A stretch of DNA of 28,425 bases from positions 1 to 28,425 of the IMG/VR virus record IMGVR_UViG_3300029822_001159; one strand, 5' to 3'. The notes beneath the pieces are model-generated. The model searched no databases. It saw nothing but the letters and a program-made list of their open reading frames with translations, and was not told where the DNA came from. A program made the position numbers and the translations under genes. The stretch is from a virus. Lineage: Duplodnaviria; Caudoviricetes. Shown one piece after another: positions 2,322 to 28,425 of this stretch (position 1 is the first letter of the stretch; every line of letters starts with the position of its first letter).

Positions 2322-2397
2322 TTCTTCCTCCTCTGCTACGATAAAAGCTGTTTTATTTCCAGCTCTATCATAGCTGATTTGGAGGATTGTGGTAAAT

Positions 2398-2448
2398 ACT
2401 GTTCATTCTTATTTGTTGTTTTCTGTCCATTTTAGTTTAGCGGTTACA
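2398..2448 (-). repeat. IS21 terminal region with two imperfect tandem transposase-binding repeats
   Basis: CTGTTCATTCTTATTT (~2399-2414) and CTGTCCATTTTAGTTT (~2423-2438), then the terminal ...CGGTTACA. Multiple internal repeats are characteristic of IS21 ends. Confidence 0.7.
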
Positions 2449-5268: not shown

Positions 5269-5298
5269 TTTAAGTATAAGAAGGCGGGCGGTGAGATT

Positions 5299-8067
5299 TT
5301 GATAAATAGATTTTCATCACGAATTAAAAGACTCGATTGTGCTTTTTTAAATGATAAGTTAAAGAATGCAAAAAGTTATGATCGAATTGCCGGGTTTTTC
5401 AGTTCCTCAATTCTTGAAGTTGCAGGGGAGGAAATTGAAAATATTACAGGCACTGTACGGCTTATTTGCAATGCCTGTCTTGAAAAAGATGATGTTATAA
5501 CAGCTACTGCAGCAGCGAATGCTCTTCGTAAAGAATGGTGTGCAAGTGAACCTGAGCAACAACTTACAAACGCTACTCCGAGATTAAAAAAGCTATATGA
5601 ATTATTAAAAAGTAAAAAGCTGATAGTGCGTGTGTTACCTAATGATGTATTTGGTTTAATTCATGGAAAGGCTGGGGTTATTACCTTTTTAGATAATACA
5701 AAAACATCATTTATTGGTAGTGTAAATGAAACTTACTCTGGTTGGAGACTAAATTACGAAATTTTATGGGAAGATGACAGCGAAGAATCAGTGCAATGGG
5801 TGCAGGATGAGTTCGATTATTTCTGGCAGCATCCATCGGCAATACCACTTTCAGATTTTATTGTTGAAGATATTGGTCGTATTTCTGGACGTGAGGTAAT
5901 TGATGATATAAAAAAGTGGAAAGCTTCACCAGAGCCAGCACAAGCTATTGTAGAATCTCCCGTTTATCGTAAAGAATTGGGTCTTTGGGAGCATCAGAAA
6001 TTTTTCGTAGACACTGCTTTCCGTGATCATCAAAAGAGTTATGGAGCAAGATATGTTCTTGCAGATCAAGTAGGGCTTGGAAAAACAATACAGCTTGCTT
6101 TATCTGCACAGCTTATGGCTTTATGCGGAAGCAAACCTATTTTAATCATTGTACCAAAGACATTAATTTGGCAGTGGCAAGATGAAATGAAAAATTTACT
6201 TGGTATGCCATCTGCAGTATGGACAGGTAAAGAGTGGCAAGATGAAAATGAAATAAAATATCCACCAACAGATGATATAAGAAAATGCCCTCGTAAGGTT
6301 GGCGTTATATCCCAAGGACTTATTGTAAACGGACGTGATGAATACATAGAACAGCTTTTAACTATGCAATTTGAATGCGTTATTGTAGACGAAGCACATC
6401 GAGCAAGACGTAAAAACTTGGGTGAAGGTAAGGAAAATGATAAACCACAACCTAATAATTTAATGGATTTTCTATTAAAGATATCAAAGAATACTCATAG
6501 CATGTTGCTTGCAACAGCAACACCTGTTCAGATGTACCCTATTGAAGCCTGGGATTTACTTTATATTTTATCTCAGAAAAATGACAGTGTGCTAGGTAGT
6601 GAATTGTCAAAATGGCGTACTAATCCTCAAAAAGCATTAAACTTAATAATGGATAAAGAACGTATTAGTTCAAAAATCGATGGGTTATTAGAACAATGTG
6701 AGTGGTTAAGAAACCCACTGCCACCTGCAGCAGAAGATCCTATTAGTTTTGGAGTGTTAAGACGTAATTTAGGATTGTCTGATGATACTTTTGTAATAAA
6801 ACCAGATGTCTTTCGAGAAGTTATAGCAAGCAGAAGTCCTGATAGCAGGCGCATTGGTAGGATATTAGAAAAAGGATTTATGCAAAACCATAACCCGTTT
6901 ATCCGGCATATTATTCGTCGTACACGTGAGTTCTTAGAGACAAATAATAACCCAGAAACAGGTGAAGCATATTTAAAGAGAATAGAAGTTGTTTTAATGG
7001 GTGAAAAGGAAAACGAGGCAATCAAACTCACACCTTATTTAAAAGAAGCATATGAGTGTGCTGAAGAATTTTGTGAATTGCTCAGTAGACGAGTACGTGG
7101 CGGTGGATTTATTAAAACATTATTACTAAAAAGGGTTGGAAGCACTATGATAGCAGGTCTTTCCACTGCTGAGAAAATGCTAAATTGGAGTATTCAATCT
7201 GAAACAGTCTTTGATGAAGATGATGATGAATACGAAGAGGAAGTACCAAGACGTGGAAAGAAAAAGGTGAATTCGGAAGATGAAAGGTATAGTGAAGTCA
7301 AAGATTTAACTGATGCAGAAAGAGAATGTTTGAGTAGGTTTATTAAAAAGCTTGATGCAAATAAAGACAAAGACCCTAAATATGAGCTTGTTCTTTCACT
7401 GCTTAATAACAAAGGCTTTGCTGATAAAGGATGTATTATTTTTTCACAGTACTATGATTCAGCGTTGTGGGTTGCAACTGAATTGTCTAAGGATATGAAA
7501 GGTAAAGTTATTGGACTCTATGCTGGTGGTGATAAGTCTGGAATAATATGCGATGGTATCTTCAAAAAATGTACAAAAGAGGAAATCAAACGTAAGGTTA
7601 AATTGCGAGAGATTAAGATTCTTATAGGAACGGATGCGGCATCAGAGGGTCTAAATTTACAAACACTTGGTAGCCTTATTAACCTTGACTTGCCCTGGAA
7701 TCCAACAAGACTTGAACAAAGAAAAGGTCGTATCCAGCGTATTGGGCAGGAAAACGATAAGGTATTTATTTATAATATGCGCTATAAGGATTCTGTCGAA
7801 GATAGGGTACATGATATGCTATCCCAAAGGCTGCAAAATATTAGCAGTATATTCGGGCAATTACCCGATGTGCTTGAAGATGTATGGGTATATATGGCAT
7901 TGAATAATAAAGCTGAGGCAGAAAGAATAATCGATGCAATCCCAAAACAACATCCATTTGAAATTCGTTACGAGCAACAGGCAATTGGAAATGTGGACTG
8001 GGAAAGTTGTACTACTGTATTAAGTGAAAGAGAAAAATATAGAAGCTTATTGGATGGTTGGAAATAA
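5299..8067 (+). CDS. PLD-like nuclease fused to SNF2/SF2 helicase (restriction-like anti-phage effector)
   Basis: HGK and GSVNET...NYE PLD-type motifs; ADQVGLGKT, VDEAH, ATATP, TDAASEGLNLQ and DLPWNPTRLEQRKGRIQRIGQ helicase motifs. Confidence 0.9.
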   Translation: MINRFSSRIKRLDCAFLNDKLKNAKSYDRIAGFFSSSILEVAGEEIENITGTVRLICNACLEKDDVITATAAANALRKEWCASEPEQQLTNATPRLKKLYELLKSKKLIVRVLPNDVFGLIHGKAGVITFLDNTKTSFIGSVNETYSGWRLNYEILWEDDSEESVQWVQDEFDYFWQHPSAIPLSDFIVEDIGRISGREVIDDIKKWKASPEPAQAIVESPVYRKELGLWEHQKFFVDTAFRDHQKSYGARYVLADQVGLGKTIQLALSAQLMALCGSKPILIIVPKTLIWQWQDEMKNLLGMPSAVWTGKEWQDENEIKYPPTDDIRKCPRKVGVISQGLIVNGRDEYIEQLLTMQFECVIVDEAHRARRKNLGEGKENDKPQPNNLMDFLLKISKNTHSMLLATATPVQMYPIEAWDLLYILSQKNDSVLGSELSKWRTNPQKALNLIMDKERISSKIDGLLEQCEWLRNPLPPAAEDPISFGVLRRNLGLSDDTFVIKPDVFREVIASRSPDSRRIGRILEKGFMQNHNPFIRHIIRRTREFLETNNNPETGEAYLKRIEVVLMGEKENEAIKLTPYLKEAYECAEEFCELLSRRVRGGGFIKTLLLKRVGSTMIAGLSTAEKMLNWSIQSETVFDEDDDEYEEEVPRRGKKKVNSEDERYSEVKDLTDAERECLSRFIKKLDANKDKDPKYELVLSLLNNKGFADKGCIIFSQYYDSALWVATELSKDMKGKVIGLYAGGDKSGIICDGIFKKCTKEEIKRKVKLREIKILIGTDAASEGLNLQTLGSLINLDLPWNPTRLEQRKGRIQRIGQENDKVFIYNMRYKDSVEDRVHDMLSQRLQNISSIFGQLPDVLEDVWVYMALNNKAEAERIIDAIPKQHPFEIRYEQQAIGNVDWESCTTVLSEREKYRSLLDGWK

Positions 8068-8085
8068 AATTTATTGTTAGGGTGT

Positions 8086-8114
8086 ATATAGCCGAAGTGA
8101 GGCTTCGGCTGTAT
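8086..8114. promoter_or_regulatory. Intergenic inverted repeat between the defence helicase and the polymerase gene
   Basis: ATATAGCCGAAG-TGAGG-CTTCGGCTGTAT with no U-tract after it, so its role as a terminator is uncertain. Confidence 0.45.
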
Positions 8115-8153
8115 GTCTAAAAAAGATAGTTGTAAAGTGGGTGGTCAAAACAG

Positions 8154-11100
8154 ATGGTTAAAAAACGCCAATATCATATCTGGCAGTACAAGCTTGAGCA
8201 GCTTACTGAAACTGATGGCATGCTGATGCTGGAGTTTGATAAAAATGATGCCGTAAACACCAATGAAACACTGATGTTCTACATATTAAATGAGAAAATA
8301 ATGGGTCGTAAATTTGACGATACCGTTGAATATAAAACTGATGAGAATGGAAATGAAGTCAGGGTAAAAAAGAACTTCATTCCGATTATTACCATAGAAA
8401 CTGGCAGGAGCAGGAATAAGGAACAGACTGCAAAGCTTGAGAAGCTTTTGAATGAAGGCTTTTATACTGATACAGAACCAGTAGGACATTTTGTATTTAT
8501 TGATAATGTTCTTTCTGGCTCTCAGAATAAAGAGTGCAGACAGATTTTTGTGCTGGAGAAATACCTGGAGAAGTTGAAGGAACATATTTCTCTTGGTGTT
8601 GAGCCTGAAAAGTGTACTGTATCAAAGAATCTCACAAGAAATGCATTGACAACAACGGATGTATATTTAATTCCTGCTGATATGAAAAAGCTAGGCATCT
8701 GTATTATCCCCGACTGTGAAGTGCCTGTTTACGAAGATGTAATGATGGTTAATCCATATGCCCGTACTCCAGAGGAAGAGCAGCAGTATCAGGAACTAAT
8801 GGCTTGGATTGAAGCGGATAAAGAGTATTATAAGAAAATTAAAGCAGTAAGCGAAGCTGTGAATGCTTCTGACTGTACTGTGGAGAAAATACCGAAGGAG
8901 AATCGCAAAAAAAGCACTTATAAGACTGTAAAACAGTGGAAGGAAGCTGGCCGCAAGGTTAAGGCAGAGGAACTTGAAAATCCAAAAGCCAGAATCTATG
9001 TAGATACAAAGGCAAAATACTATGCTTTATATATAGAAGAACAGACCGATGAAATAGGTGAAGAAGAAACAAAGGAGATTCCTATTACTGAATGGTCAAC
9101 TGGGCTTCAATTAGCTACCGTTGAAAACCACAAGTGTATTGAAAATGTGTTTGATGGCATGGGGGTAGTATCAAAGGAGCTTGGGGAGAAGTTTAAGAGT
9201 TTTATAAAAACAGATTATTCTATTACAGGGTATCAGCTGCGACTCCCTGCTATTAAAGGATTTTTTCCTGTTGTAGATTTTAAAGCATATTATAAAAAGC
9301 ACAATATAGACTTCATTACCGATATGTGGGGACAAGCACATAGGGTAGATGAAATCGACATCCTTACCACAGAATCAACTTTTAAGGCAAAGCTGAATGT
9401 AACTGGGGTCAAAGAGGATGGCTCAGAAAAGAAGGAGTGGCTTTTTAAGAGTATTGATGAATATAAGGAACTGCTTGTTAAGTATGGATACGATGCCATA
9501 GGTGTATCTAATTTTGCAAAGCCTGTGGAAGAAGAGTTCAGAAGGGCTACATATCAGCTATGGCTGGCACTTAACATTCAAAAGCTGGACTTGCTTGCAT
9601 TGTCAAATGTTCAGGGAGATATTATCCATAAGGTATTGAGCATCTACCGAAAGGGTGAAATTGACTGGCAGGATATAAAGTATATTGAAACCTTCCTGAA
9701 CCTCATTCAAAAGGAGAATTCCGACACCAATTTGGCAAAGGAATGTGCGGATGCCATTAAAGCTATCCATATAAATAAGAAGATGGTTTTTGACCGCAAG
9801 GTGATTCAGACCATTAAAGATGTTATTAATAAAAAACTTGATGATATGTGCATGGGCAGATTCTATGCGAATGGAAAATACCTTTATGTAACACAGGATA
9901 TTCTTGCCTTTTTAAGATATGCTGAGGCTGAAAACAGAGAGCAATGGGAGTATTCAGGCTTTCTTGGGAAGAAGCAGTTTTACTGTGGCGGTAAAATAAT
10001 CGGCAGGAATCTGCTGACAAGGAATCCGATCATGAGCTACTCTGAAATTGCAAAGGTGGACTTTATTGATTATCAGAGAGAGGACTCGGAGTTTATAAAG
10101 CACCTGGATAATATAATTCAGATGCCGCTGGGTACTGAACCAGACAGACTTGGAGGAAATGACAAAGATGGGGACGAATTATTCGTGCTGTCCACCGATT
10201 ATAATTTAAAGCACACAAATATTGAATATTTACAGAATTATAACTTTATTGTGAAAAAAGAGGACAGCAAGCATTTTAATAAGAACTTGCTTGATGTTAT
10301 AAATGAAAGCTTACAAGAGCATTTTAATACTCGCTTTCCTGATAAAGTAGTGGTGACCATTGAAGATTATGTTGTTCCATCCTTGGTTCAGGTTAATGAT
10401 GAAGATAAAGCTACCGCACCGAGCAAAGAATGGAATAAAGAAAATGTTATCCAATTCATTATTGATTCCGAGGATAAAACAGGTGTAATTACTGACATCA
10501 ATACTGCTATAGAAAATGTGGCAAATGAAGAAGCCGACCTGCCGAAGTATGCCCTCCCAATTGCCATTATGAAAGACTTGCAGGGAAAAATGATTGATGC
10601 CAGTAAGTCTGGACTTTTCGACCAAGTGGTAGTGCCAGAGGTAATAAAACTTAAGTTCAGGAAAAAGCCACAGTTTATGTATTATAAGGATGGAAATGAA
10701 TTCAACAAGGATTATGACACCAAATCTGCTATGGACTTCTTTGCCGACAGGATGAAGCAGTTTAAAGAATATGTTAACAGGGTTATGAGAGAGGACATCA
10801 ATAAGAAAATCAAGGCACAGTGTTTTGAAAATATATACAATTATTTGATGAATCCTGAGCTTGATGGTGAAGTGGTACAGAAAGTAATTGAAGCATTGGA
10901 TGATATATATTCCCGTTTTATACAGGAAAACAGGACGCTGGCAATTTTAAAGTCAAGAATTAACCCTTATTCCAGTGATGACAGGTATAAACGGGAGCGT
11001 GAAATTGTAGACCAGAAATTCAAAGACCTTTATGGAAAAACAAGGATGGATGCGGAGAAGATTTGCAGCTGTCCGTCACTACTGGCTACTGCTGCTGTTA

Positions 11101-11654
11101 GAATGACTTACATTAATACCAAGTACAACAACCAAAACGACAACTACTCCTTCTGCTGGATTGTTGCACCTGAAGGTATTCTGCAGAATATAAAAATGCA
11201 TGAGGATAAAGAAAAAATCTATGTGGTTAAGGCTGATGAAAATGAACAGGATGTTTTCGAATGGTTGGGAGAGTATTACAAGACTCAGGTTTCCGATGGA
11301 GAGTATCCTTTAAAGTTTAATGCCGAAATGGATATGAGTATTCCAGAAGAATATTTGAGGAGCAAAGCAGATGAACTGCCTGATATTCAGGATTTAACAA
11401 TAACCATTATGGGTGTTGAAAAGGGAAAAGCAGAAGAGGTAGCTGCTGAAATGCTGGGGAAGGCATATCCTCTATTTGTAAATGAAAGTAACTGGCTTGG
11501 TATTAACGGAAATATGAGTATAAAGGAAAGAGAAACTCTTACTTCAGGAGTAGATTTAAGAAAATATATCGGGCATGATGTCCTGATTAAAGAAATTATT
11601 ACAGCTAAGAATACTCAAACTGTAATAAAAGTAACTGCTGATATTAAAGGATAG
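8154..11654 (+). CDS. Single-subunit two-barrel RNA polymerase, YonO-like / eukaryotic RdRP (QDE-1) superfamily
   Basis: Ordered motifs FDGMGVVS (~9150), YQLRLPAIKG (~9231), TRNP (~10017), LGGNDKDGD (DKDGD at 10161-10175), TGVITD and QGKMIDASKSG match the cellular RdRP/YonO motif series. Confidence 0.82.
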   Translation: MVKKRQYHIWQYKLEQLTETDGMLMLEFDKNDAVNTNETLMFYILNEKIMGRKFDDTVEYKTDENGNEVRVKKNFIPIITIETGRSRNKEQTAKLEKLLNEGFYTDTEPVGHFVFIDNVLSGSQNKECRQIFVLEKYLEKLKEHISLGVEPEKCTVSKNLTRNALTTTDVYLIPADMKKLGICIIPDCEVPVYEDVMMVNPYARTPEEEQQYQELMAWIEADKEYYKKIKAVSEAVNASDCTVEKIPKENRKKSTYKTVKQWKEAGRKVKAEELENPKARIYVDTKAKYYALYIEEQTDEIGEEETKEIPITEWSTGLQLATVENHKCIENVFDGMGVVSKELGEKFKSFIKTDYSITGYQLRLPAIKGFFPVVDFKAYYKKHNIDFITDMWGQAHRVDEIDILTTESTFKAKLNVTGVKEDGSEKKEWLFKSIDEYKELLVKYGYDAIGVSNFAKPVEEEFRRATYQLWLALNIQKLDLLALSNVQGDIIHKVLSIYRKGEIDWQDIKYIETFLNLIQKENSDTNLAKECADAIKAIHINKKMVFDRKVIQTIKDVINKKLDDMCMGRFYANGKYLYVTQDILAFLRYAEAENREQWEYSGFLGKKQFYCGGKIIGRNLLTRNPIMSYSEIAKVDFIDYQREDSEFIKHLDNIIQMPLGTEPDRLGGNDKDGDELFVLSTDYNLKHTNIEYLQNYNFIVKKEDSKHFNKNLLDVINESLQEHFNTRFPDKVVVTIEDYVVPSLVQVNDEDKATAPSKEWNKENVIQFIIDSEDKTGVITDINTAIENVANEEADLPKYALPIAIMKDLQGKMIDASKSGLFDQVVVPEVIKLKFRKKPQFMYYKDGNEFNKDYDTKSAMDFFADRMKQFKEYVNRVMREDINKKIKAQCFENIYNYLMNPELDGEVVQKVIEALDDIYSRFIQENRTLAILKSRINPYSSDDRYKREREIVDQKFKDLYGKTRMDAEKICSCPSLLATAAVRMTYINTKYNNQNDNYSFCWIVAPEGILQNIKMHEDKEKIYVVKADENEQDVFEWLGEYYKTQVSDGEYPLKFNAEMDMSIPEEYLRSKADELPDIQDLTITIMGVEKGKAEEVAAEMLGKAYPLFVNESNWLGINGNMSIKERETLTSGVDLRKYIGHDVLIKEIITAKNTQTVIKVTADIKG

Positions 11655-11749
11655 TTATATCGCCAGCGAAGCTGGCGTAGGGCGGACAATGCCGAAATAA
11701 TGGCTTGCTCGCAAACTATTATAAAAATATCAAGGAGGTCATGAGCATC

Positions 11750-11938
11750 ATGAAAAATGATACAATTGTAATAACGCAGGAAAGAATGGCTGGATGGCTT
11801 ATGTTTAATAGATTTCATAAATTTGATGAAAAGCCAGACTTAAAGGATTCAAAAAGAAAAATATTCATCTTTAAGGATTCCCCCAGACTGCGTGAAACTA
11901 TGGAGAAATATAATCATTTCAAAGAAATCATAAGCTAA
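11750..11938 (+). CDS. Small phage protein, DUF5659-like
   Basis: ITQERMAGWLMFNRF...KIFIFKDSPRLRETMEKY pattern. AGGAGG at 11733-11738 supports an ATG start at 11750 (or 11741) rather than 11705. Confidence 0.65.
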   Translation: MKNDTIVITQERMAGWLMFNRFHKFDEKPDLKDSKRKIFIFKDSPRLRETMEKYNHFKEIIS

Positions 11939-11962
11939 TGGTAAAGTTGGTGAGCAGAACAT

Positions 11963-14062
11963 ATGGAGAGCATGAACATTAAGGATTTAGTCATACCAAA
12001 AGCTGGCTATAAAACTCATGTTAATGAAATTATAAAGAATTTCAAGAAAGTAATTAATAGAGATATTCCTAGACGTCAAGAAGAGAACTTAAAAAAGCTT
12101 GCCAGTCTATTCTTGAATGATGTGAAGATTGATAAGCCAATTGTAGTCAATCTTGATATTGGTCAAGGTAAATCAACTTTATTATTGGAATTTATAAAAT
12201 ATATTTATGAAATAGACAGCACATTTACAACCGTTATAGTTAAAAGAACACTTCAAGAAGGAAGAGATTTTTGTATTGAAACTGGATTAAAAAACAAAGA
12301 AGCTGAAAGAGATCTTGCAGAATGGTGTGTTGATATCAGAAAACAACTTGAGGATATATATTATGGGGATATAGATGATTTAAAGGATTCTGGTCATGCT
12401 GAGGTGCTTCCAGATGAAGATGCTTTTATTGCAAGATTACTCCGAGGATTCAACTATAAAGATTGCATGAAATGGGAAGATCCTAAAAAGGTTGAGAAAT
12501 ATATAGGCAAACTTCCTGACTATTACAGGGATTATTCACCGGTTTTGTGTATGAATTGCGAAAGAATATGTGGTGCTAAATTGAGCAGATGGACTGCTGA
12601 TAAACACCCTGCATTAGTAATAACTCATCAAAGACTATTTCTTAGCAATGATATGGATAACATTGCCGAAAGTATATCGGGTAGAAAGGTTCTTATTATT
12701 GATGAAAAAATTGAAACAAAGGATATAGGAGATGTACTTCTTGAACAATGGAAAACTATATTTGCAAAATTGGAATCATCTAATTTGAATGATGAACTCA
12801 AGAAGGAGCTAAATCAAATAGATAAGCACCTTGTTAACTTACAGTATCCTTCAAAATCCGATGGTACTATAGTACGTATAGATGCATTTAACATGAATTA
12901 TAAGTTTAATTTCCAAATATATGCTTTATTGATGGAAGATTACGACAATATTAAGAACTTAATTGCGGTAGAGAAGTTTCTGAATTATGGAGGTACGGCA
13001 AGCAGGAGTTGGCATAAAAATGATAAAGAACAGTTCAGCTATATAAGGTATATCAACCTTGAAAACTATACAAGACATTTTGAAAAAACCATTATTCTTG
13101 ATGCGACAAGTGCAAGAAATGGTGAAATTTTGGATGAAGATTATAAAAAGAGTAATGTCGTGTTTCTAGATGGGCTGAACCAAACGGCTCAAGGAAAAGT
13201 TAACCTTTATTATAGTTCACAAAGGACAGCCAAAAGTTCTTTGATAGTTAGTTCCAATATTAAGACCGATAAAGAAAAGAAACAGTACAGGAAAGGAGAT
13301 AGAGAGTTCTACCAGTTAAATCTTGAGTTAATATCACACGAAATTCAAGATATAATAACTTCCAACAATGAAAAAACATTAATTATTTGCTACAAATTAA
13401 TATTGGATAGATACGGGAATGAATTCAAATTTGAAGATGATTTGAAGAAAATGATGAAAAATTTTGATTTAGATACAAAGCTTTATACAATCAGGCATTT
13501 TGGAGCATCAACCACAGGTGTGAATGATTTTAGAACGTATAAAAATATTATATTTGTTGGAATGTTAAATAAAGGTAAATTGTATTATACCAATAAGACA
13601 TTAGCCATAGGTAGCGGTAATCCCGATGTAACTGCACTCAGTGAATATATTATTGACAGTATACAGCAAATTGGTAGAATTTGCGTTAGACAAGGTGAAG
13701 ATGCAAATGTCTACATGTTATTTGAAGATAGCATTGGTCTGACTCAAGAGATGACTAAGCATTATTCATTAAAGAAGATGGAGTGGATACCAAAATATTT
13801 TAATGGAATTGAAAATGCAACTGTATCGAAAAAAGGGTCTTGCTGGTATGCAATTATTAGTGAACTTAAAAAAATGAATGAAGGTGATTTGTTGAGTTTG
13901 AATGATTTGCAGGATGCTTTAAAACCTAAATTTAAGGCAGATACAGTATATAGAGGAGTAGGACATCTTCAAGTTGAAAACTATATAGTTTCAAATTCAA
14001 TTACCTATAATAGAATGGAGAAGTGTTTTAAGAAAAAATTACCAAAGGTAGAAAAAGAATAA
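11963..14062 (+). CDS. Divergent SF2 helicase-like protein with a four-cysteine cluster (putative replication or transcription helicase)
   Basis: Walker A DIGQGKST, VITHQRL, Walker B LIIDEK, motif III LDATS, motif V-like TTGVNDF, motif VI QQIGR. Cysteines in YKDC...LCMNCERIC. Confidence 0.7.
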   Translation: MESMNIKDLVIPKAGYKTHVNEIIKNFKKVINRDIPRRQEENLKKLASLFLNDVKIDKPIVVNLDIGQGKSTLLLEFIKYIYEIDSTFTTVIVKRTLQEGRDFCIETGLKNKEAERDLAEWCVDIRKQLEDIYYGDIDDLKDSGHAEVLPDEDAFIARLLRGFNYKDCMKWEDPKKVEKYIGKLPDYYRDYSPVLCMNCERICGAKLSRWTADKHPALVITHQRLFLSNDMDNIAESISGRKVLIIDEKIETKDIGDVLLEQWKTIFAKLESSNLNDELKKELNQIDKHLVNLQYPSKSDGTIVRIDAFNMNYKFNFQIYALLMEDYDNIKNLIAVEKFLNYGGTASRSWHKNDKEQFSYIRYINLENYTRHFEKTIILDATSARNGEILDEDYKKSNVVFLDGLNQTAQGKVNLYYSSQRTAKSSLIVSSNIKTDKEKKQYRKGDREFYQLNLELISHEIQDIITSNNEKTLIICYKLILDRYGNEFKFEDDLKKMMKNFDLDTKLYTIRHFGASTTGVNDFRTYKNIIFVGMLNKGKLYYTNKTLAIGSGNPDVTALSEYIIDSIQQIGRICVRQGEDANVYMLFEDSIGLTQEMTKHYSLKKMEWIPKYFNGIENATVSKKGSCWYAIISELKKMNEGDLLSLNDLQDALKPKFKADTVYRGVGHLQVENYIVSNSITYNRMEKCFKKKLPKVEKE

Positions 14063-17510: not shown

Positions 17511-18056
17511 TTGGGCAGTAGAAAGGGGATTCCTAATAAAAAAACTCGATATGATTCGGACATATTACCAAGACTGTCGGACATAAAGGAATGGCTGATG
17601 CAGGGAGATACTGTAAGGGAAATTTGCAAGAAACTTGATATATCACCCGACTCTTGGTATCGTTACTGCAAGGGGCATGAAACACTCTCTGAACTTGTAA
17701 CTATGGGCAGGAGCGTGTTATGTAATGAGGTGGAAAAATCATTATTGAAGCTTTGCACTGGTTATGAATATGAAGAACTCAAGACTATTGTTGAAGAGGA
17801 TAAAAATGGGAAAAAGCGTACCAAGATTGAAAAGGTAAAACGTCATCAGCCACCATCGGCTGTAGCTATCTCGTTTTTCCTCCGTAACCGTATGCCAGAG
17901 GAATGGTCGGAGAAGAAGGAACTTATATTGGATACAAGCCAGAATGAGGAAGCCAGGAAGCAGTTGTTCCTGCAAATGGTGAATGGTGAGTTTGATGCTG
18001 ATGCTGGAGATAGCGATGAAGATTGCCAAGAAGAGCAGCAAAGAACCGATGAGTAA
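17511..18056 (+). CDS. Putative terminase small subunit (N-terminal HTH)
   Basis: HTH (TVREICKKLDISPDSWYRY) and VEKSLLKLCTGYEYEE...PPSAVAISFFLRNRMPEEW pattern. Lies upstream of TerL; AAGGAGGTGA RBS. Confidence 0.72.
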   Translation: MGSRKGIPNKKTRYDSDILPRLSDIKEWLMQGDTVREICKKLDISPDSWYRYCKGHETLSELVTMGRSVLCNEVEKSLLKLCTGYEYEELKTIVEEDKNGKKRTKIEKVKRHQPPSAVAISFFLRNRMPEEWSEKKELILDTSQNEEARKQLFLQMVNGEFDADAGDSDEDCQEEQQRTDE

Positions 18057-18229: not shown

Positions 18230-19078
18230 GTGCTTGATTTAAGCGGGTTTGAAGTATATTTAAGAAGCGAAGAACGAAGCAAGAATACCATTGGCTGCTA
18301 TATTCGGGACAGTAAGGTTTTCATTAACTGGTATAACAGCAGAACTGATTGCGGTCTTGATAAACTGATTGAACTTGATGCCATTGAATATAAGAAGCAC
18401 TTGCTTAACACTAACGAATCGGTGGTTACAGCCAACAGGAAGATTGCCAGCATCAATGCCTTATGTAAATGGCTCTATGAAAGCGGAACAACTCCTACTG
18501 AAGTTAGTATAAAAGCAGTAAAGAATCGGGATGCTCGCCAGTATAAGGGCTTAGAGGAAAGGGACTTGAGGAGGCTCCGAGCGGAGATACACAGAAACAG
18601 GAATCAAATGCACATTTGCATTATTGAAGTATTGCTTGGCACAGGGCTTCGGGTGAGTGAACTTTGCAATATTAGGCTTAGGGATATTGATATAACAGAA
18701 CGTAAAGGCACTATAAGGGTTATAGGAAAAGGAAACGTAAACAGGACAATCCCATTGAATAAGGATGTCCGAAAAGCAATTCAGGACTATCTTGCAGTAA
18801 GACCAACGGATGAAAGTGACTTCCTATTATTAGGTCAACGTGGAGCCTTGAAAAGGAATGCAATAAACCTTATCCTTGAGAAATATGGTGATAGAGTTTC
18901 AGTTGAAGTGACACCCCATAGCTTAAGACATACCCTTGGTTATAAGCTGGTTAAGGAAGGCACAGCAATTACTACCATCCAGCAGATACTTGGTCACGAT
19001 AACATAATGACTACGAACCTTTACACAGTTACAACAGAACAGGATATGAGTGATTCCTTGGAGGCACTGGAGTGGTAA
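18230..19078 (+). CDS. XerC/D-like tyrosine recombinase (no arm-binding domain)
   Basis: Catalytic residues in GLRVSEL, GKGN, HSLRH, LGH and TTNLY. 282 aa with a SAM-like N-terminal domain. Confidence 0.92.
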   Translation: MLDLSGFEVYLRSEERSKNTIGCYIRDSKVFINWYNSRTDCGLDKLIELDAIEYKKHLLNTNESVVTANRKIASINALCKWLYESGTTPTEVSIKAVKNRDARQYKGLEERDLRRLRAEIHRNRNQMHICIIEVLLGTGLRVSELCNIRLRDIDITERKGTIRVIGKGNVNRTIPLNKDVRKAIQDYLAVRPTDESDFLLLGQRGALKRNAINLILEKYGDRVSVEVTPHSLRHTLGYKLVKEGTAITTIQQILGHDNIMTTNLYTVTTEQDMSDSLEALEW

Positions 19079-19096: not shown

Positions 19097-19203
19097 AATG
19101 CACCTTTCCCGATGGGAGGGGTGCTTCTATCTGTAAAAATTGTCCCGACAGCAAATGGTGTGAAAATTTTTGTAATATTTTTGTAGGAAAATAGTTTTTA
19201 GGA

Positions 19204-19212
19204 TGATATAAT
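19204..19212 (+). promoter_or_regulatory. Extended -10 promoter of the PemK/MazF gene
   Basis: TG-A-TATAAT about 35 nt upstream of the start codon. Confidence 0.55.
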
Positions 19213-19245
19213 CTATATTGATGTCAAATTAAGGGGGTGAGGGGT

Positions 19246-19875
19246 ATGGCATTAAATATAGATTTATCAAAAACTCAAGCGTATTTTGATTGGTTTAAGC
19301 AATTACTTTATTATAATTGGAAAGCAAACAATTCCAAAAATAAGAATATTAGAGTTGTTAAAAGAGGGCAGGTATATTATTGTGATCTTGGTTTAGGTGT
19401 TGGAAGTGAAGAAACTAAGAATAGACCTTGTGTAATAATACAGAATAATACTGGTAATAATTTTTCACCTAATACTATTGTTGCACCTATTACAAATGAA
19501 AAAGCAGAAGAGAAAGTTTCGGTTGCTATTACTGGAACTTATACATATAATGATATTGAGGATGGAATTCAGAAGAATTTATCGGGGTATATTCTCTTAG
19601 CTAATATAGTAACAGTAAGTAAAGCAAGGTTAGGACAATATATTGGTGAGTTAAATTGTGAATTAAAAGAAATGGATGAAAAAATATTAACATCATTAGG
19701 GTTATATGAAAAATTTAAAATTTTACAAGAAAAGGTAACCAAGGATAAAATCTTTATTAAAAATTCAATTGATGAAAATTATAGACTAAGGAAATCTTTA
19801 AAAGAGATTATTGATAGCAAGGATTTTGAAAAAACACAAGAGATTTTAAAGAAGTATAGGATAGAAAAAATTTAA
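19246..19875 (+). CDS. PemK/MazF-family endoribonuclease toxin with N- and C-terminal extensions
   Basis: VKRGQVYYCDLG..VGSE..KNRPCVIIQN...SPNTIVAPIT and TVSKARL. Start is ATG 19246 or GTG 19237. No adjacent protein antitoxin ORF. Confidence 0.9.
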   Translation: MALNIDLSKTQAYFDWFKQLLYYNWKANNSKNKNIRVVKRGQVYYCDLGLGVGSEETKNRPCVIIQNNTGNNFSPNTIVAPITNEKAEEKVSVAITGTYTYNDIEDGIQKNLSGYILLANIVTVSKARLGQYIGELNCELKEMDEKILTSLGLYEKFKILQEKVTKDKIFIKNSIDENYRLRKSLKEIIDSKDFEKTQEILKKYRIEKI

Positions 19876-19883
19876 TCTAATTG

Positions 19884-19913
19884 TTGTATAATTAAGTGCA
19901 TGTGTGTTATAAT
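19884..19913 (+). promoter_or_regulatory. sigmaA promoter downstream of the toxin gene, driving a non-coding region
   Basis: TTGTAT-18 nt-TATAAT with an extended TG at 19905-19906. Confidence 0.7.
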
Positions 19914-19919
19914 AAATAT

Positions 19920-20073
19920 ACAAATAAGTTTGCTCACGATGAGCGGACGCTAATTAAATTCAAATAAGAGGGATATTGTTTATCCCTCGCTACTTTACAA
20001 ATAAATTGAAACTTGAAGTTTCAATGCTAAATTTTCAAAAATGGGTGACCTTGTTGGTCACCTATTACTTTTT
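19920..20073 (+). ncRNA. Candidate small RNA (~150 nt) made of four CAAATAA-[21-nt hairpin]-GCTA units; putative RNA antitoxin
   Basis: Units start at 19921, 19961, 19998 and 20036. Hairpins lie at 19928-19948, 19968-19988, 20005-20025 and 20043-20063. The last unit (leader CAAAAAT, no GCTA) has a T-rich tail and looks like a terminator. Confidence 0.7.
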
Positions 20074-20100
20074 AAATCTAAAAAATACTGAGGTGATGCG

Positions 20101-21702
20101 ATGCAATTGCAACAAGACCATCACCGCCAGAACCTCCTACTAAAAGAATATCTGAACAAATATTTCTCTCCGAACAAGATAGAAGAGCTTGTCGGGGAGT
20201 TTTCATTTTCAGAGCTTCGTAGGTTGCTTGGCGAGATGGATATAGAATTTTTTGCTCTGTGTTACTTCCCGAAATACTTTGACCGTAAATTTGGGCAGTT
20301 TCATAAAGAGCTATTTGAAGAACTAAAATATATGCTGGACAATAATGGGTTGATTGAAGCTTTTGGATTGCCGAGAGAGCATGGGAAAAGCACAATCAAC
20401 TCTTTTTTATTTCCGCTGTATTCAACACTGTACTCTAAATCCTGCTTTACGCTGATAATATCGGCAACAGAGCAGATCGCTCTTCCTTTTCTTGATATGA
20501 TTAAGGATGAGCTTGAAACCAATCAATTACTAATGGAGGATTTTGGTATATATAAAGGTAACCGCTGGAACAATAATGAGATTTGGATTAGAGGTAGAGG
20601 TGGCTTAGATGCTTGCATAATGATTCGTGGTATAGATGGTTCGTTGAGGGGTATTCACTTCAAGCAGTACCGCCCTCAGCTTGTTCTTCTTGATGATCTT
20701 CTCAAAGATGATACTGCAAAGTCGGAAGCCAAACGCGAGCAGGTTAAAAGTACCTTTACAGATGTCATTATTCCTATTGGCACAAGAGATACAAATATAC
20801 TTGTTGTCGGTACCGTTCTTCATGAAGAGGATTTAATGGCTGATTTACTTAAAGGGAAAATCCCAGGAGTAAGAAGTATTAGGAAAGCAGCAATAATTAC
20901 TTGGACAGAGCGAGATGACCTTTGGAGTGAATGGGAAACAAAATACAATAATCTTCAGGATTTAGACAGGATTGAAACTGCTAAGTCCTTTTTTTATGAC
21001 CATCAAGAGGAAATGTTGGAAGGTACAGAAATTCTATGGTCTGAATATTTGGATTATCATTATCTCATGTGCAAGAAACAGGCTATGGGCGACAAAAGTT
21101 TTTATAAGGAAATGCAGAATGATCCTCGAAGTACCGATGATTACATATTCCAGAACATATCCTTTTGGGAAAGGCTTCCTGAATATGAGGAGCTTGAAAT
21201 CATCATGTACATCGACCCTGCAATAAAAGCAGGAAAAAGAAATGACTATTCTGCTATTACAATTCTTGGACAACACAGAAAGACCAATCAGATGTATGTA
21301 ATTGATGGTTCAATTTATAAGCTACTTCCAGATGATTTATTTCAAGCTGTAATTGAAAAGTTGCAGTATTACCCTGTTGAGAAAATAGGTTTTGAAGCTA
21401 CACAGGCACAGAGCTATATGAAGCAGAAGTTTGAAGAGCAGCTATGGCAGAATAAAATCTATGCTCCCGTTGAAGAGGTGGTTGCAAAGGGGCAAAAACA
21501 TGAAAGAATTATTACCTTAGAACCGGATGTCAAGAAGGGACACATACTGTTCAATTCTTCCAATGTCGGATATAATAATCAAGTAAAGGATTATAACAAA
21601 GGTGCAAAGCACGATGATGCTCCTGATAGCCTGTATGGTGCTGTACAATTAGTTCAGGGTGTACAGCGGATCAGGTTTTTCGACAGGAGCTTGCTATTTT
21701 AA
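20101..21702 (+). CDS. terL: Phage terminase large subunit
   Basis: Walker A PREHGKST, Walker B VLLDD, nuclease motifs YIDPA and HDDAPDSL. Confidence 0.93.
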   Translation: MQLQQDHHRQNLLLKEYLNKYFSPNKIEELVGEFSFSELRRLLGEMDIEFFALCYFPKYFDRKFGQFHKELFEELKYMLDNNGLIEAFGLPREHGKSTINSFLFPLYSTLYSKSCFTLIISATEQIALPFLDMIKDELETNQLLMEDFGIYKGNRWNNNEIWIRGRGGLDACIMIRGIDGSLRGIHFKQYRPQLVLLDDLLKDDTAKSEAKREQVKSTFTDVIIPIGTRDTNILVVGTVLHEEDLMADLLKGKIPGVRSIRKAAIITWTERDDLWSEWETKYNNLQDLDRIETAKSFFYDHQEEMLEGTEILWSEYLDYHYLMCKKQAMGDKSFYKEMQNDPRSTDDYIFQNISFWERLPEYEELEIIMYIDPAIKAGKRNDYSAITILGQHRKTNQMYVIDGSIYKLLPDDLFQAVIEKLQYYPVEKIGFEATQAQSYMKQKFEEQLWQNKIYAPVEEVVAKGQKHERIITLEPDVKKGHILFNSSNVGYNNQVKDYNKGAKHDDAPDSLYGAVQLVQGVQRIRFFDRSLLF

Positions 21703-21751: not shown

Positions 21752-22564
21752 ATGAATACGGTTTTCGTTAGCATACTAACCAGCTTGGTAGTGAGTTTAA
21801 TAACATTCACACTTGGAATGAAATCTGGTAAAAATCAAGCCGATAGGCAGCGATTAAAAGAACTATACAAGAATATAACTGTCCATTTTCAAAATCTGAA
21901 GAAAGGTCTAGAAAGCCATACTCCAAAAACGTGGAGGAATTTTTTTGATAAAACAGGTAATTCAGACCCTCTTATAAAAAGAATGATAAAAAATGGGGAT
22001 ATAATTGAAATAAACGGGAAGATATCAAAAAGAGCGGAAGAGACTGAAAAGCAGGCACTTGTTTTAGGCTGGAGATTCTATGATATTTATAAGGATTTAC
22101 ATGCAATATCTATTGAAACAATCAAAAAGTATGCAACTATACATCACGAACCTACTGGAAACAATTATTGTACTAAAAAATCAGAAAACAAAATTGGTCG
22201 ACCTTATTGGGAATGTGGATTTGGAATCCTCCTAGATAAAAAGCTAATTGATGAAAGAATATCATATTTAAATAATAGTCCTAATAATGGCTTTAATTTT
22301 ATACACACTCAAGACGGTAAGATATTATACTCAGTAACAATTTATCCTGATGACTTAACGGACATTTCCATTAAGGATTTACTCTATGAGATTAATAGTA
22401 CATCAATTGAGAAGATAGAAAATGCAAGTAGTTTATTAAAGCAGAAAGAGGAAATATGTAAAGATATTAATGAGATTATCAAAAAGAGCATAAGAAGAGC
22501 GAGAGACCCCCATACATTTATCGAAACCATTGGGGGTGCTTTCCTAGATATTTTCAAAATTTAA
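21752..22564 (+). CDS. Hypothetical cargo protein with an N-terminal transmembrane helix (moron)
   Basis: Hydrophobic start VFVSILTSLVVSLITFTLG. AT-rich, sits between terL and portal, and has its own terminator. Confidence 0.7.
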   Translation: MNTVFVSILTSLVVSLITFTLGMKSGKNQADRQRLKELYKNITVHFQNLKKGLESHTPKTWRNFFDKTGNSDPLIKRMIKNGDIIEINGKISKRAEETEKQALVLGWRFYDIYKDLHAISIETIKKYATIHHEPTGNNYCTKKSENKIGRPYWECGFGILLDKKLIDERISYLNNSPNNGFNFIHTQDGKILYSVTIYPDDLTDISIKDLLYEINSTSIEKIENASSLLKQKEEICKDINEIIKKSIRRARDPHTFIETIGGAFLDIFKI

Positions 22565-25114: not shown

Positions 25115-25526
25115 ATGGGAAACACGATTTTAACTCCATCTATAATAGCGAAGGAAGCATTGATGCAATTAAGAAACAATACGGTTATGGCAAGTTTGGT
25201 ACATAGGGATTATTCGCAGGAATTTGTTGCTGGAGTGGGCAACACCGTTACAATTAGGAAGCCAGCAACTTTTGAAGCGCAGGAATTTAATAGGAGTACA
25301 GGTATTCAGATTCAGGATGCCACAGAAGGCTCTGAATCAGTGGTATTGGATAAGCTTTTGGATGTATCCTTTGAAGTTACGTCTGAACAGCTTACTATGG
25401 GCATCAAGGATTTCAGTGAGCAATTGCTGATTCCAGCAATGCAGGGCTTTGCAAATAAAATTGACCAGTATTTATTGGGTCTTTATAATGAGATTCCATT
25501 TAACTTCGGCACGGCAGGAAGTACCC
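25115..25526 (+). pseudogene. Major capsid protein (P22 coat / HK97-fold type), truncated by a transposon
   Basis: NTILTPSIIAKEALMQLRNN...VHRDYSQEF..GNTVTIRKP. Only ~137 codons precede the TGT transposon end; the ORF stop at 25543 is element-derived. Confidence 0.85.
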
Positions 25527-25564
25527 TGTTACAGCCAACTTAAACCGTCCAAAAGCTGACGGTA

Positions 25565-25593
25565 TTGCCTGACCGAGAATTGCTAGATATAAT
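25565..25593 (+). promoter_or_regulatory. sigmaA promoter inside the transposon left end
   Basis: TTGCCT-17 nt-TATAAT. Confidence 0.7.
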
Positions 25594-25741
25594 GACCATA
25601 TCTTAGGGAAAGGAAAAGACGCCTCTGTTAAATGTGCTAATGCAGCAACAAAAGCACCAGAAGCGTCCCCCAAAGGTATGGTAATTGTATCAAATTATGA
25701 ATTAGATTTAAACCCCGATAAGGGAGTTTTTTGTTAGGAGC

Positions 25742-26227
25742 TTGGAGCAACTTCCCTGCCCGTGTTGTAGTGGACAATTAAAAGTAATAGGTAGCCGCCA
25801 GAGAAAATGTATCAATGCCTCAGGGGAAAAGATAATTTTAATCATTCGTAGGTTAAGATGCATTGAATGTAACCGTATCCACCACGAACTACCGGATATG
25901 CTTGTGCCATACAAACTTCATGTTAGTGAAAGTATTGAGGCAGTGGTTAGCAATGATTCAGAGCTTAGTGTTATCTCCGATGAATCTACTCTGAATCGGT
26001 GGAGAAAATGGTTCAATGAGAAGGCCGATTACTTCCAAGGTTGCATGGAATCAATTACAATCCGTTATGGCAGTGAATCTGTAGAAGATAAATCCGATCT
26101 TCCTGAGTCCAAGCTCCAAAGGATTTGGCATTATGTAGGGGATGCTCCGGGATGGTTAGCCAGAGTTGTCCGCCCCATAGCCAACTTAAATTTATGGATA
26201 CATACCCGTTTAGCCTTTTGTCCATAA
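25742..26227 (+). CDS. Zn-ribbon transposon accessory protein, DUF6431-like
   Basis: CPCC...IRRLRCIECNRIHHELPDMLVPYK and ESTLNRWRKWF. Start uncertain (see frameshift finding). Confidence 0.7.
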   Translation: MEQLPCPCCSGQLKVIGSRQRKCINASGEKIILIIRRLRCIECNRIHHELPDMLVPYKLHVSESIEAVVSNDSELSVISDESTLNRWRKWFNEKADYFQGCMESITIRYGSESVEDKSDLPESKLQRIWHYVGDAPGWLARVVRPIANLNLWIHTRLAFCP

Positions 26228-26276
26228 GAGTATAGCTTTACACTCATGCTGAAACCTGAAAAAGGAGGTAATCAGC

Positions 26277-27632
26277 ATGAGAGACCAAAAGAAAGCGGAC
26301 GAAATTGCCGAGCAGCGAGTGCAAATCCTGTCCCCACTCCTGGCCGAAGGGCTGGATAGTGCTCAGGCCAGGCAGATTAAAGCCAGGATATGTGAACAGA
26401 CCGGCATATCCGAACGTACCCTGCGCAGATATCTGGCCCAGTACCGGAAGGATGGTTTTAGCGGACTCAAACCCAAAGGTAAGGGAGAGCGACGAAGTGA
26501 CGAAGCAATACCGGTTAACATCCTGGAACAGGCAATCCTTTTGCGCAGGCAGGTACCGAGCCGTAGCATTGCACAGATTATTCAAATCCTGGAATGGGAA
26601 GGGTTGGTAGAGCCAGGACAAATCAAGCGCAGTACCCTGCAGGAGAAACTGGCCGAACGAGGTTACAGCGCCCGGCACATGCGCATGTATGCCGATACCG
26701 GTACAGCTGCTCGGCGCTACCAGAAGAAATACCGTAACCAGCTCTGGCATTCGGACATAAAATATGGTCCATACCTACCCATAGGCAAAGACGGGAAAAA
26801 GAAGCAGGTTTACCTGGTAACCTTTGTAGATGATGCGACCAGATATATTTTGCATGGTCAGTTCTATCCCACTTTGGATCAGGTAATCGTCGAAGATGCT
26901 TTCCGCCAGGCCATTTTAAAATACGGGGTACCAGAAAAAGTATATTTCGATAACGGTAGCCAGTATCGAACCAAATGGATGAAAAGAGCTTGCGCTAAAA
27001 TGGGGATTCGCTTACTCTTTGCCAAGCCCTATTCCCCTGAAGCTACCGGGAAATCAGAACGATTTAACCGGGTAGTAGATTCCTTCCTGGCTGAAGCGGT
27101 TCTGGAGAAACCTCAAACCCTGGATAAATTAAACCAGCTATTTGAGGTCTGGTTGGAGGAGTGTTATCAGAACAAGCCCCATTCCGGGTTAGAAGGAAAC
27201 ATTAGTCCTCAGACTGCCTACCGCAGTGACAGGAAATCATTAAAATTTCTAGACCCCGAAACAATAGCCAGTGCTTTTCTCCATTGCGAAGAAAGAAAAG
27301 TAGATAAGGCAGGCTGCATCAGTTTTGCGGGGAAAAAATACGAAGTAGGACTAACCTTTATTGGCTGTAAGGTAGATGTCATCTATGATCCAGCCGATAT
27401 CAGCGAACTGACTATTGAATACGAAGGCCATAAACCTTTTAAAGCTAAAGAACTGGTTATTGGAGAACGGAGTGCTCCCAGGCCTAAACTACCCGAGCAT
27501 TTACAGAAGGCTCCAGCAGATTCTTCAAGGCTACTAAATGCAGCTGCCAGGAAGAACCAGGAACGTAAAGAAACCCAAATCCCTGCTGTCTCCTACCGGA
27601 AGGTAAGGAAGGAGGGGGAAAGTCATGTTTGA
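26277..27632 (+). CDS. DDE transposase (HTH, rve core, Mu-transposase C-terminal domain)
   Basis: ISERTLRRYL HTH; LWHSDIK, YFDNGSQY and GKSERF catalytic D-D-E; RKVDKAGCISF C-terminal domain. Confidence 0.92.
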   Translation: MRDQKKADEIAEQRVQILSPLLAEGLDSAQARQIKARICEQTGISERTLRRYLAQYRKDGFSGLKPKGKGERRSDEAIPVNILEQAILLRRQVPSRSIAQIIQILEWEGLVEPGQIKRSTLQEKLAERGYSARHMRMYADTGTAARRYQKKYRNQLWHSDIKYGPYLPIGKDGKKKQVYLVTFVDDATRYILHGQFYPTLDQVIVEDAFRQAILKYGVPEKVYFDNGSQYRTKWMKRACAKMGIRLLFAKPYSPEATGKSERFNRVVDSFLAEAVLEKPQTLDKLNQLFEVWLEECYQNKPHSGLEGNISPQTAYRSDRKSLKFLDPETIASAFLHCEERKVDKAGCISFAGKKYEVGLTFIGCKVDVIYDPADISELTIEYEGHKPFKAKELVIGERSAPRPKLPEHLQKAPADSSRLLNAAARKNQERKETQIPAVSYRKVRKEGESHV

Positions 27633-28425
27633 GAGTTTTTACGGTCTGGAAAGAACACCGTTTTCCAGGGATATCCCCACGGATCAGTTGTATCAATCGC
27701 ACATGTTGGAAGAAACCCTGGGACGTTTAGAATATACCGCTCAGCGCCAGATGTTTGCAGTGTTAACCGGGGACTGTGGAACCGGGAAGACTACTACCAT
27801 ACGTAAACTTAAAGAAGCATTAGATACATCCCGGTTTATGGTGATGTACCTAGCCGATTCCAAATTGACGCCCCGGCATTTTTACAAAGGTCTCCTTGAA
27901 CAATTAGGTTGTGAGGCCAAGTTCTATCGGGGTGATGCCAAACGTCAATTACATAAAGAGATTGAACTTATGCAAGGCATCCATCATCTACAACCCGTGG
28001 TTATCGTAGATGAAGCCCATCTTTTAGACAAAGAGATGCTGGAAGAAGTTCGTTTCTTACTAAATTTCAAAATGGATGCACAGAGTCCGATGGCTTTAAT
28101 ACTGGTAGGACAAAACGAACTCTGGGAACGGCTTAAACTCCAATCCTACGCAGCAATCAGGCAGCGCATTGATTTGCAATGCAAGTTGCCCTACCTGGAC
28201 CGGGCAGAAGTAGGGGAATATATTAAAACACACTTGGCTTATTCCGGTGCCGACCATGATATTTTTTCAGATAATGCTATAGATGAGATATTTAAGTTTT
28301 CGAGTGGAGCTGCCAGAATGGTCAACAAGGTTTGTACCCATTGTCTGATATACGGAGCACAAAATAATCGAAATATTATTGATGACCACATGGTGAAGTT
28401 TGTTGTTCAGGGGGAATTGAGTTAG
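27625..28425 (+). CDS. ExeA/TnsC-like AAA ATPase, transposition helper
   Basis: Walker A GDCGTGKT, Walker B VIIVDEAH, LILVGQ, AIRQRI and SSGAARMVN. Confidence 0.92.
   Translation: MFESFYGLERTPFSRDIPTDQLYQSHMLEETLGRLEYTAQRQMFAVLTGDCGTGKTTTIRKLKEALDTSRFMVMYLADSKLTPRHFYKGLLEQLGCEAKFYRGDAKRQLHKEIELMQGIHHLQPVVIVDEAHLLDKEMLEEVRFLLNFKMDAQSPMALILVGQNELWERLKLQSYAAIRQRIDLQCKLPYLDRAEVGEYIKTHLAYSGADHDIFSDNAIDEIFKFSSGAARMVNKVCTHCLIYGAQNNRNIIDDHMVKFVVQGELS

Follow-up and report, generated by a model that had tools for sequence, protein, structure and literature searches.

The window, by which we mean the whole 28,425-nt stretch of DNA analyzed here, is a provirus record in which a small cassette lies between the integrase and large terminase genes as a low-GC insert (25–32%, compared with about 40% around it). 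The features of this region are as follows:

17511–18056, small terminase gene
18230–19078, tyrosine-recombinase (integrase) gene, the 5′ neighbor of the cassette
19100–19124, + strand, terminator-like hairpin (z = –4.6)
19204–19212, + strand, predicted toxin-gene promoter, extended –10 (TG-n-TATAAT), inferred by reading the sequence
19230–19244, + strand, G-rich putative ribosome-binding region of the toxin gene, from the same reading
19246–19875, + strand, gene for a solo MazF/PemK endoribonuclease of 209 aa (PF02452, E = 1.2e-20)
19884–19913, + strand, predicted sigma-A promoter for the RNA, with –35 TTGTAT (19884–19889), 18-nt spacer, TG-n-TATAAT (19905–19913)
19920, + strand, predicted +1 of the RNA
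19920–19996, + strand, RNA module 1: ACAA leader, hairpin 1, linker ending in UCAA (19960–19963), hairpin 2
19928–19948, + strand, hairpin 1, 21 nt, loop ACGAU
19968–19988, + strand, hairpin 2, 21 nt, loop UUGUU
19997–20073, + strand, RNA module 2: ACAA leader, hairpin 3, UCAA (20035–20038), hairpin 4, U-tail
20005–20025, + strand, hairpin 3, 21 nt, loop UUGAA
20043–20063, + strand, hairpin 4, 21 nt, loop UUGUU, its U-tail forming a predicted terminator
20101–21702, large terminase (TerL) gene, the 3′ neighbor of the cassette

The promoter at 19884–19913 was read directly from the sequence and does not appear in the output of a simple promoter scanner. The hairpin at 19100–19124, which has a counterpart upstream in the C. 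acetireducens copy (L001), is terminator-like and may close the integrase gene and insulate the cassette. No same-strand open reading frame (ORF) of at least 60 aa was found in the gap between the integrase (from 19078) and the toxin or in that between the toxin and TerL (to 20101), in agreement with the original prediction that no protein antitoxin ORF flanks the toxin. Elsewhere, the window contains an IS21 element (1–2321) and a defence-like cluster (2389–14062) with a DUF1156 methyltransferase, a PLD-SNF2 helicase (PADLOC PDLC02189 and PDLC02193) and two large unannotated genes of 1166 and 699 aa. A second low-GC moron of 270 aa (21752–22564), which matched nothing in Pfam, PHROG, PADLOC or NCBIfam, lies between TerL and the portal gene. 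At 25115–28425, the major capsid gene ends after 142 aa at a DUF6431/rve/AAA insertion element, and the prophage is probably defective because this gene is cut off.

PF02452 was the only Pfam content of the toxin, and no PADLOC or NCBIfam model matched it. All PDB profile matches were MazF proteins (E = 1e-25 against solved MazF), and the top Foldseek matches were YdcE and MazF-sa, with 37–40% identity. Type III toxins share a fold with MazF, and we compared the toxin with both groups. Sequence identity was about 38–40% to the MazF of S. aureus and B. subtilis and 11–15% to CptN, ToxN and AbiQ, and structure comparison (VIA) yielded a Z score of 15.6 for MazF (rmsd 2.4, 109 residues aligned) versus 8.6 for CptN, 6.5 for ToxN-Bt and 5.5 for AbiQ. 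The toxin is thus a canonical MazF resembling those of B. subtilis and S. aureus. In the structure model (pLDDT 87), an N-terminal helix (residues 7–29) and C-terminal helices (154–203) are added to the MazF core. Among 54 aligned homologues, chosen among the 120 matches listed of 250, W16, R36, R40, E55, R60, N120, K126 and R128 were invariant, position 9 was K or R in all 54, and T83, S54 and L117 were each kept in 52; the N-terminal helix contains the invariant W16 and the conserved basic K9 and K18. Residue numbers were mapped to those of MazF-bs in part through profile alignment to solved MazF. By this map, R60, T83, S54 and E55 match R25, T48, S19 and E20 of MazF-bs, of which R25 and T48 act at the cut site, and L117 matches the Leu of ACA cutters, according to PMC10864209. 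Judged from the alignment, the catalytic residues are intact, and the E-Q motif is replaced by G/A-N in this family. With the toxin profile, about 100 clusters (50% identity) reached E ≤ 1e-30, a set that includes fragments and tandem canonical MazFs, and the carriers include Clostridia, Bacilli and one Fusobacterium plasmid.

We computed the folding of the stretch downstream of the toxin (19918–20075) and obtained four hairpins with a total energy of –48.5 kcal/mol (z = –7.13), which none of 200 shuffled sequences equalled; by half, the + strand gave –23.7 and –24.8, compared with –20.0 and –19.1 for the – strand. The coordinates, the promoter and the four 21-nt hairpins, with starts spaced by 40, 37 and 38 nt, were thus all present as originally described. 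However, they do not form the proposed four-unit array of ~38-nt monomers: ACAAATAA precedes hairpins 1 and 3, 77 nt apart, and TCAA precedes hairpins 2 and 4. The unit is instead a module of ~77 nt made up of two hairpins, and the window contains two such modules, with module 2 fused directly to module 1 and lacking a promoter of its own. In the nearest relative, L001, whose toxin is 74% identical, all four hairpins recur in likewise fused modules. A hand count of the stems of the two copies gave 11 substitutions and no broken pair, including three double compensatory changes and five one-sided changes that keep the pair. The claim that structure rather than sequence is conserved needs refining: the leaders are conserved as well, as is the G found in the third loop position of all four window hairpins.

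Profile matches were found at 115 loci, 94 of which were full length; 37 of the latter were left after loci with >90% identity or <200 nt downstream were dropped, and three whole-genome loci were added to give 40 non-redundant relatives. Most loci contain two modules 40–100 nt apart. The 5′ half of the consensus unit consists of a –35 box, TG, a –10 box, 6 nt, ACAA, about 4 nt and a hairpin of 7–8 bp, and the 3′ half of a linker ending in UCAA, about 4 nt, a GGGA...UCCC hairpin and a U-rich tail. Since hairpin 1 has two lengths among the relatives and a joint MAFFT alignment resolved hairpin 2 only, the alignments were split. In the module 1 alignment (28 rows), compensatory changes were observed at 13 of 15 pairs and 93.3% of positions were paired, a result equalled by 0/500 shuffles, with 39–56% in slid controls; the module 2 alignment (23 rows) showed compensatory changes at 15 of 16 pairs and 96.4% pairing. 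The shuffle control ignores kinship, and the covarying-pair count and the slide controls agree with it. In fixed alignment columns, G-U combinations exceeded A-C combinations (54 vs 8), and therefore the RNA is read from the + strand; this count was used in place of that from hairpins picked by folding (78 vs 0), which is circular. The invariance of the first ACAA in the alignments likewise arises by construction, through a regular-expression pick, and the leader was judged from a blind choice of promoter instead: when the best sigma-A promoter was selected without regard to the leader, CAA appeared at +2 to +4 in 29 of 40 loci, against a background of 6%. UCAA, which was unselected, preceded hairpin 2 in 25 of 28 modules.

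As the original prediction had proposed, we built a covariance model (R1) from the 3′ flanks of toxin homologues, and at 33 of the 40 non-redundant clade members it matched the covarying module downstream of the toxin in the same orientation; its training rows came from 28 of these loci, and 5 of the 12 untrained loci were matched. Within the window, module 1 (a training row) scored 57.1 bits and module 2 (untrained) 39.1 bits (E = 8e-5). The seven loci missed comprise five from one divergent subclade in which the layout is visible by eye, L101, in which an interruption directly follows the gene, and L029, which lacks ACAA. Among 83 other MazF loci, comprising 60 viral, 16 canonical chromosomal and 7 from a sister clade, R1 gave no match at E < 0.01, and one exact-pattern scan of viral contigs gave 0 matches. 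A match in L262 was rejected as chance, as it lies inside a coding gene. In a quick tree, a branch with an SH-aLRT of 92, below the starred level, separates the RNA-bearing clade from the rest. Loop type tracks the toxin tree by eye, with 4–5-nt loops around the window and ACGAGUG loops in a 20-member clade, although a shared tree of RNA and toxin is expected from co-inheritance alone. R1 matches adjoin the toxin at 32 of the 33 loci, and in L003 the match is displaced by 1.6 kb. These results show that a conserved, covarying RNA follows the toxin family in tight linkage.

The displacement in L003 (3770–5326) is due to a transposase between the toxin and both RNA modules, each of which still lies behind a promoter-like site, a naturally occurring test of the idea that the RNA can work at a distance from the toxin gene.

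If the hairpins were stacked terminators, stabilizers of the toxin mRNA 3′ end, palindromes at the DNA level or an attenuator acting on the phage gene that follows, U-tails would be unsurprising, and these are present on hairpin 4 and most second hairpins; the window promoter also faces TerL. However, a conserved promoter separates the gene from the hairpins, first hairpins lack a U-tail, conservation extends to leaders, loops and spacing, and the G-U excess is confined to one strand. Moreover, the genes that follow are not the same from locus to locus, nor is their orientation (roughly counted as ORFs at 40 loci, 20 are opposite and 12 in the same direction, with none at 8), and we regard such explanations as very improbable.

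Neighboring genes differ from locus to locus, with terminase, HNH, portal, repressor, transposase, zeta toxin and housekeeping genes among them, and the upstream flanks of the 40 relatives share no protein family. A same-strand ORF ending ≤60 nt upstream of the toxin was found at only 15 of 40 loci. Seven of these ORFs, directly upstream of the toxin, are Xre-HTH or CI-like, and no MazE-like protein was detected among the 11 upstream ORFs scanned. The Xre-HTH product could be a protein partner at those seven loci. It is improbable, in our estimation, that a protein, either this neighbor or a host MazE acting in trans, is what neutralizes the toxin while the RNA is a hitchhiking, independent small RNA of mobile elements. 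Of 399 genomes sampled from the class, 320 carry a MazF-like gene, and host MazE is therefore probably common; orphan copies of module 2 also occupy a constant prophage site, upstream of an HNH gene and behind unrelated morons. On the other hand, module 1 stays attached to the toxin in all the settings in which the cassette was seen (prophage, plasmid and chromosome), its –35 box often overlapping the region of the toxin stop codon, the module is behind 0 of the 83 other MazF loci, and a second MazF clade has repeats of its own.

Modules lacking a toxin were found in L139 (1451–1530), L141, L142, L147, L149, L150 (equivalent to L265, L266 and L269) and L151. Most are module 2 copies at the HNH site mentioned above, behind swapped morons (Abi_2, Panacea-PemK or unknown), and they are possibly relics, free decoys or independent RNAs. 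About 10–80 nt past the module, L147 and L150 share an element, GAGGAACAAAAAC ... TTTTTAGCGAGAAGGTGCCTG, which had no Rfam match at gathering score.

We compared the cassette with known systems. In common with the type III systems ToxIN, CptIN and TenpIN, as described in PMC5086642 and PMC12283969, it combines a MazF-fold endoribonuclease with a small RNA of repeated units on mobile elements, and has no protein antitoxin. However, those toxins constitute the ToxN, CptN and TenpN families, whereas the cassette toxin is a canonical MazF; their order is promoter, repeats, terminator and toxin in one operon (PMC5086642, PMC12283969), whereas the cassette RNA lies downstream of the toxin with its own promoter in the window and at every locus matching R1; and their RNAs are H-type pseudoknot repeats, whereas the cassette RNA forms simple hairpins of variable sequence. 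No pseudoknot was found: pairing of 4 Watson–Crick bp occurred between loop and linker in only 1, loop and tail in 2 and loop and loop in 2 of 28 modules. The cassette thus lies outside these systems in toxin family, gene order and pseudoknot. The original reading of a type III-like RNA-antitoxin module survives with respect to the conserved covarying RNA and the lack of a conserved protein antitoxin, but not with respect to the toxin, which the Z scores place with canonical MazF.

The nearest architectural analogue is AbiF-RCd22 of a C. difficile prophage, described in 10.1101/2025.04.15.648962 as a sigma-A small RNA with two stem-loop motifs that neutralizes its toxin by direct binding. Both are prophage morons with a two-motif sigma-A RNA, but the AbiF toxin is of the Abi_2/HEPN type and its RNA is upstream and co-transcribed (same source); the Rfam abiF family (RF03085) did not match the cassette RNA. 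Type II MazEF systems (EndoA/MazF-bs and MazF-sa) contain the closest solved toxins, with the catalytic Arg and Thr kept, but have a co-transcribed protein antitoxin gene, whereas the cassette is without a mazE gene. The cassette toxin further differs from MazF-bs and MazF-sa in its added N-terminal and C-terminal helices and in the change from E-Q to G/A-N, and the downstream RNA module is absent from the 16 chromosomal canonical MazF loci tested.

The original prediction also suggested a correspondence with the Rfam pemK motif. We rejected this candidate: RF02913 matched neither the window nor 20 relatives, although the positive control gave 11 of 151 genomes, and the true RF02913 is a different three-stem RNA starting with AUAAUGAUAC, which has only the name and Bacillota in common with the cassette RNA. 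The RF02913 matches (L118–L131) fall within regions of conjugative elements, close to genes for excisionase/recombinase and sigma-like proteins. No A1-family PemK ORF was found nearby in these 14 loci, and the name of the motif may therefore mislead. No Rfam family reached its gathering score in the window, with nothing better than E = 0.99 near the hairpins, and scans of 20, 15 and 11 related loci yielded no relevant match and none of ToxI/CptI type. In the freely accessible literature searched, we found no description of a MazF/PemK with a downstream hairpin RNA. The cassette layout, which dozens of relatives have in common, is uncatalogued in the sources covered, and its RNA module is a family missing from Rfam 15.

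We further analyzed the promoters of the two modules. For module 1, 29 of 34 promoters matched at least 5/6 of TTGACA at a spacing of 16–18 nt, and 30 of 34 carried the TG extension, whereas for module 2 the corresponding numbers were 1/33 and 2/33. Module 2 instead exhibited ATA-15/16-CATAnnnT in 14 of 33 cases and GNATA-13/15-GGnnAnAnT, which resembles the sigma-F promoter pattern, in 6 of 33 (20/33 together). These sporulation-type patterns were written after inspecting the sequences; they were observed in 0/34 of the module 1 promoters and at most twice in shuffles. As sequence patterns, the two promoter classes contrast clearly. According to the promoter descriptions in PMC3789822, mother-cell –10 elements read CATATTAT/CATATAAT, the sigma-E –35 element is ATA, and sigma-F promoters have an upstream G; the module 2 promoters with these patterns match either the mother-cell –10 element CATATAAT with an ATA –35 or a G upstream of the sigma-F –10. 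Its sigma-E-like spacer is 15–16 nt, versus the 16–18 nt termed 'classical' in the same description (PMC3789822). We hypothesize from these patterns that module 2 is read by sigma-E or sigma-F.

There is a small chance that the toxin restrains itself by means of its added helices, and that the RNA binds as a cofactor, sensor or substrate in a switch for phage defence or sporulation. This possibility would accommodate the family-specific helices (7–29 and 154–203), the two developmental promoter classes and the position of the RNA, which is downstream and separately promoted, unlike described RNA antitoxins. However, RNA can lack toxin, whereas toxin almost never lacks RNA, which is the direction expected of an antidote.

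We consider it fairly probable that the cassette represents a new RNA-antitoxin family, in which the ACA-led hairpins of the downstream two-hairpin RNA bind and inactivate the solo MazF as product mimics. Direct neutralization of the protein by the RNA is inferred because of the linkage, the covariation and the lack of a protein partner. The RNA would be transcribed from its own promoter with its 5′ end at ACAA. MazF grooves read ACA downstream of the cut (PMC10864209), so the 5′-ACAA end could act as a product mimic that fills the groove while presenting nothing to cleave. The added basic N-terminal helix would grip the hairpin that lies 4 nt past ACAA. MazF is a dimer, and the second CAA-hairpin, 37–40 nt further on, may fill its other groove; a stem of constant length at a constant distance from the leader word, present twice in each RNA, would suit a dimer with two sites. 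The idea that the A-rich leaders are processing sites does not suit the first ACAA, which is at the predicted +1, and leaves the internal UACAA of the fused form (19996–20000) as the only candidate; this site could be where the modules of the window and L001, fused under sigma-A, are split. In most relatives, two RNA genes, one under sigma-A and one putatively under a sporulation sigma factor, would keep the antidote supplied during host sporulation. Loss of the unstable RNA, through element loss or shut-off of transcription by a phage, would free the nuclease, which could then stabilize the prophage or plasmid or abort the infection. For comparison, the type III system ToxIN-Bt is reported to retain a plasmid through sporulation (PMC4615649). 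Neither ACAA (245 observed vs 237.7 expected) nor TACAA (82 vs 83.2) was depleted in 40 toxin coding sequences, which therefore provide no independent sign that the toxin recognizes the leader word.

An RNA antitoxin might instead act by base pairing in trans, in a type I or CreA-like manner, with the C-rich 3′ arm of hairpin 2 covering the toxin ribosome-binding site; to this we give a small chance. About 19974–19997 pairs imperfectly with 19230–19254, which includes the ribosome-binding site and start codon (raw –23.4 kcal/mol), but the net gain in the window is only –3.9 kcal/mol once the hairpins are opened. Cognate pairs slightly outperformed permuted pairs for module 2 (P = 0.007 raw and 0.046 net, n = 27, uncorrected for four tests and for kinship), whereas no cognate advantage was observed for module 1 (P = 0.26 and 0.65, n = 31) or over the whole mRNA (–14.56 vs –14.32, n = 33). 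Moreover, the arm is locked inside the best-conserved stem, and pairing leaves hairpin 1, the loops and the leaders unexplained.

A parallel case is provided by a sister clade (support 99, with six loci in the tree) of solo MazFs of ~197 aa at seven loci (L232, L233 and L235–L239). These proteins extend further at the N terminus, share the Trp and keep the canonical E-Q motif. At 60–260 nt past the MazF stop, these loci contain a promoter-like site, two repeats of the form CAUA, short hairpin, AGAYUMUAU..CAUA, and a terminator-like hairpin; the repeats matched no Rfam family. The first repeat begins with UACAU in six of the seven loci, and UACAU is the cut site given for MazF-bs and MazF-sa in PMC7781912.

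It is possible, although we lean against it, that on more than one occasion in Bacillota a canonical MazF replaced its protein antidote by RNA: distinct clades of solo MazF with N-terminal extensions would each have downstream hairpin RNAs of their own, with leaders that copy the product (ACAA in the family of the window, ACAU in the sister clade), separate RNA genes for growth and sporulation, and orphan copies in prophages that act as decoys against such toxins. If true, a form between type II and type III systems would survive today, and RNA antitoxins timed by development would constitute a new class. Within a single family, a canonical MazF with a simple hairpin RNA would open the transition from protein to RNA control to testing, specificity could be probed with cognate and non-cognate pairs that occur naturally, and a class of 'orphan' PemK/MazF annotations would be explained. 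A second antitoxin gene with a sporulation promoter would show prophages and plasmids scheduling addiction or defence through sporulation, and a small RNA off-switch for sequence-specific ribonucleases could result.

At four further loci (L030, L031, L034 and L037), distant, long solo MazFs of phages have a promoter-like site and hairpins of other sequence directly downstream.
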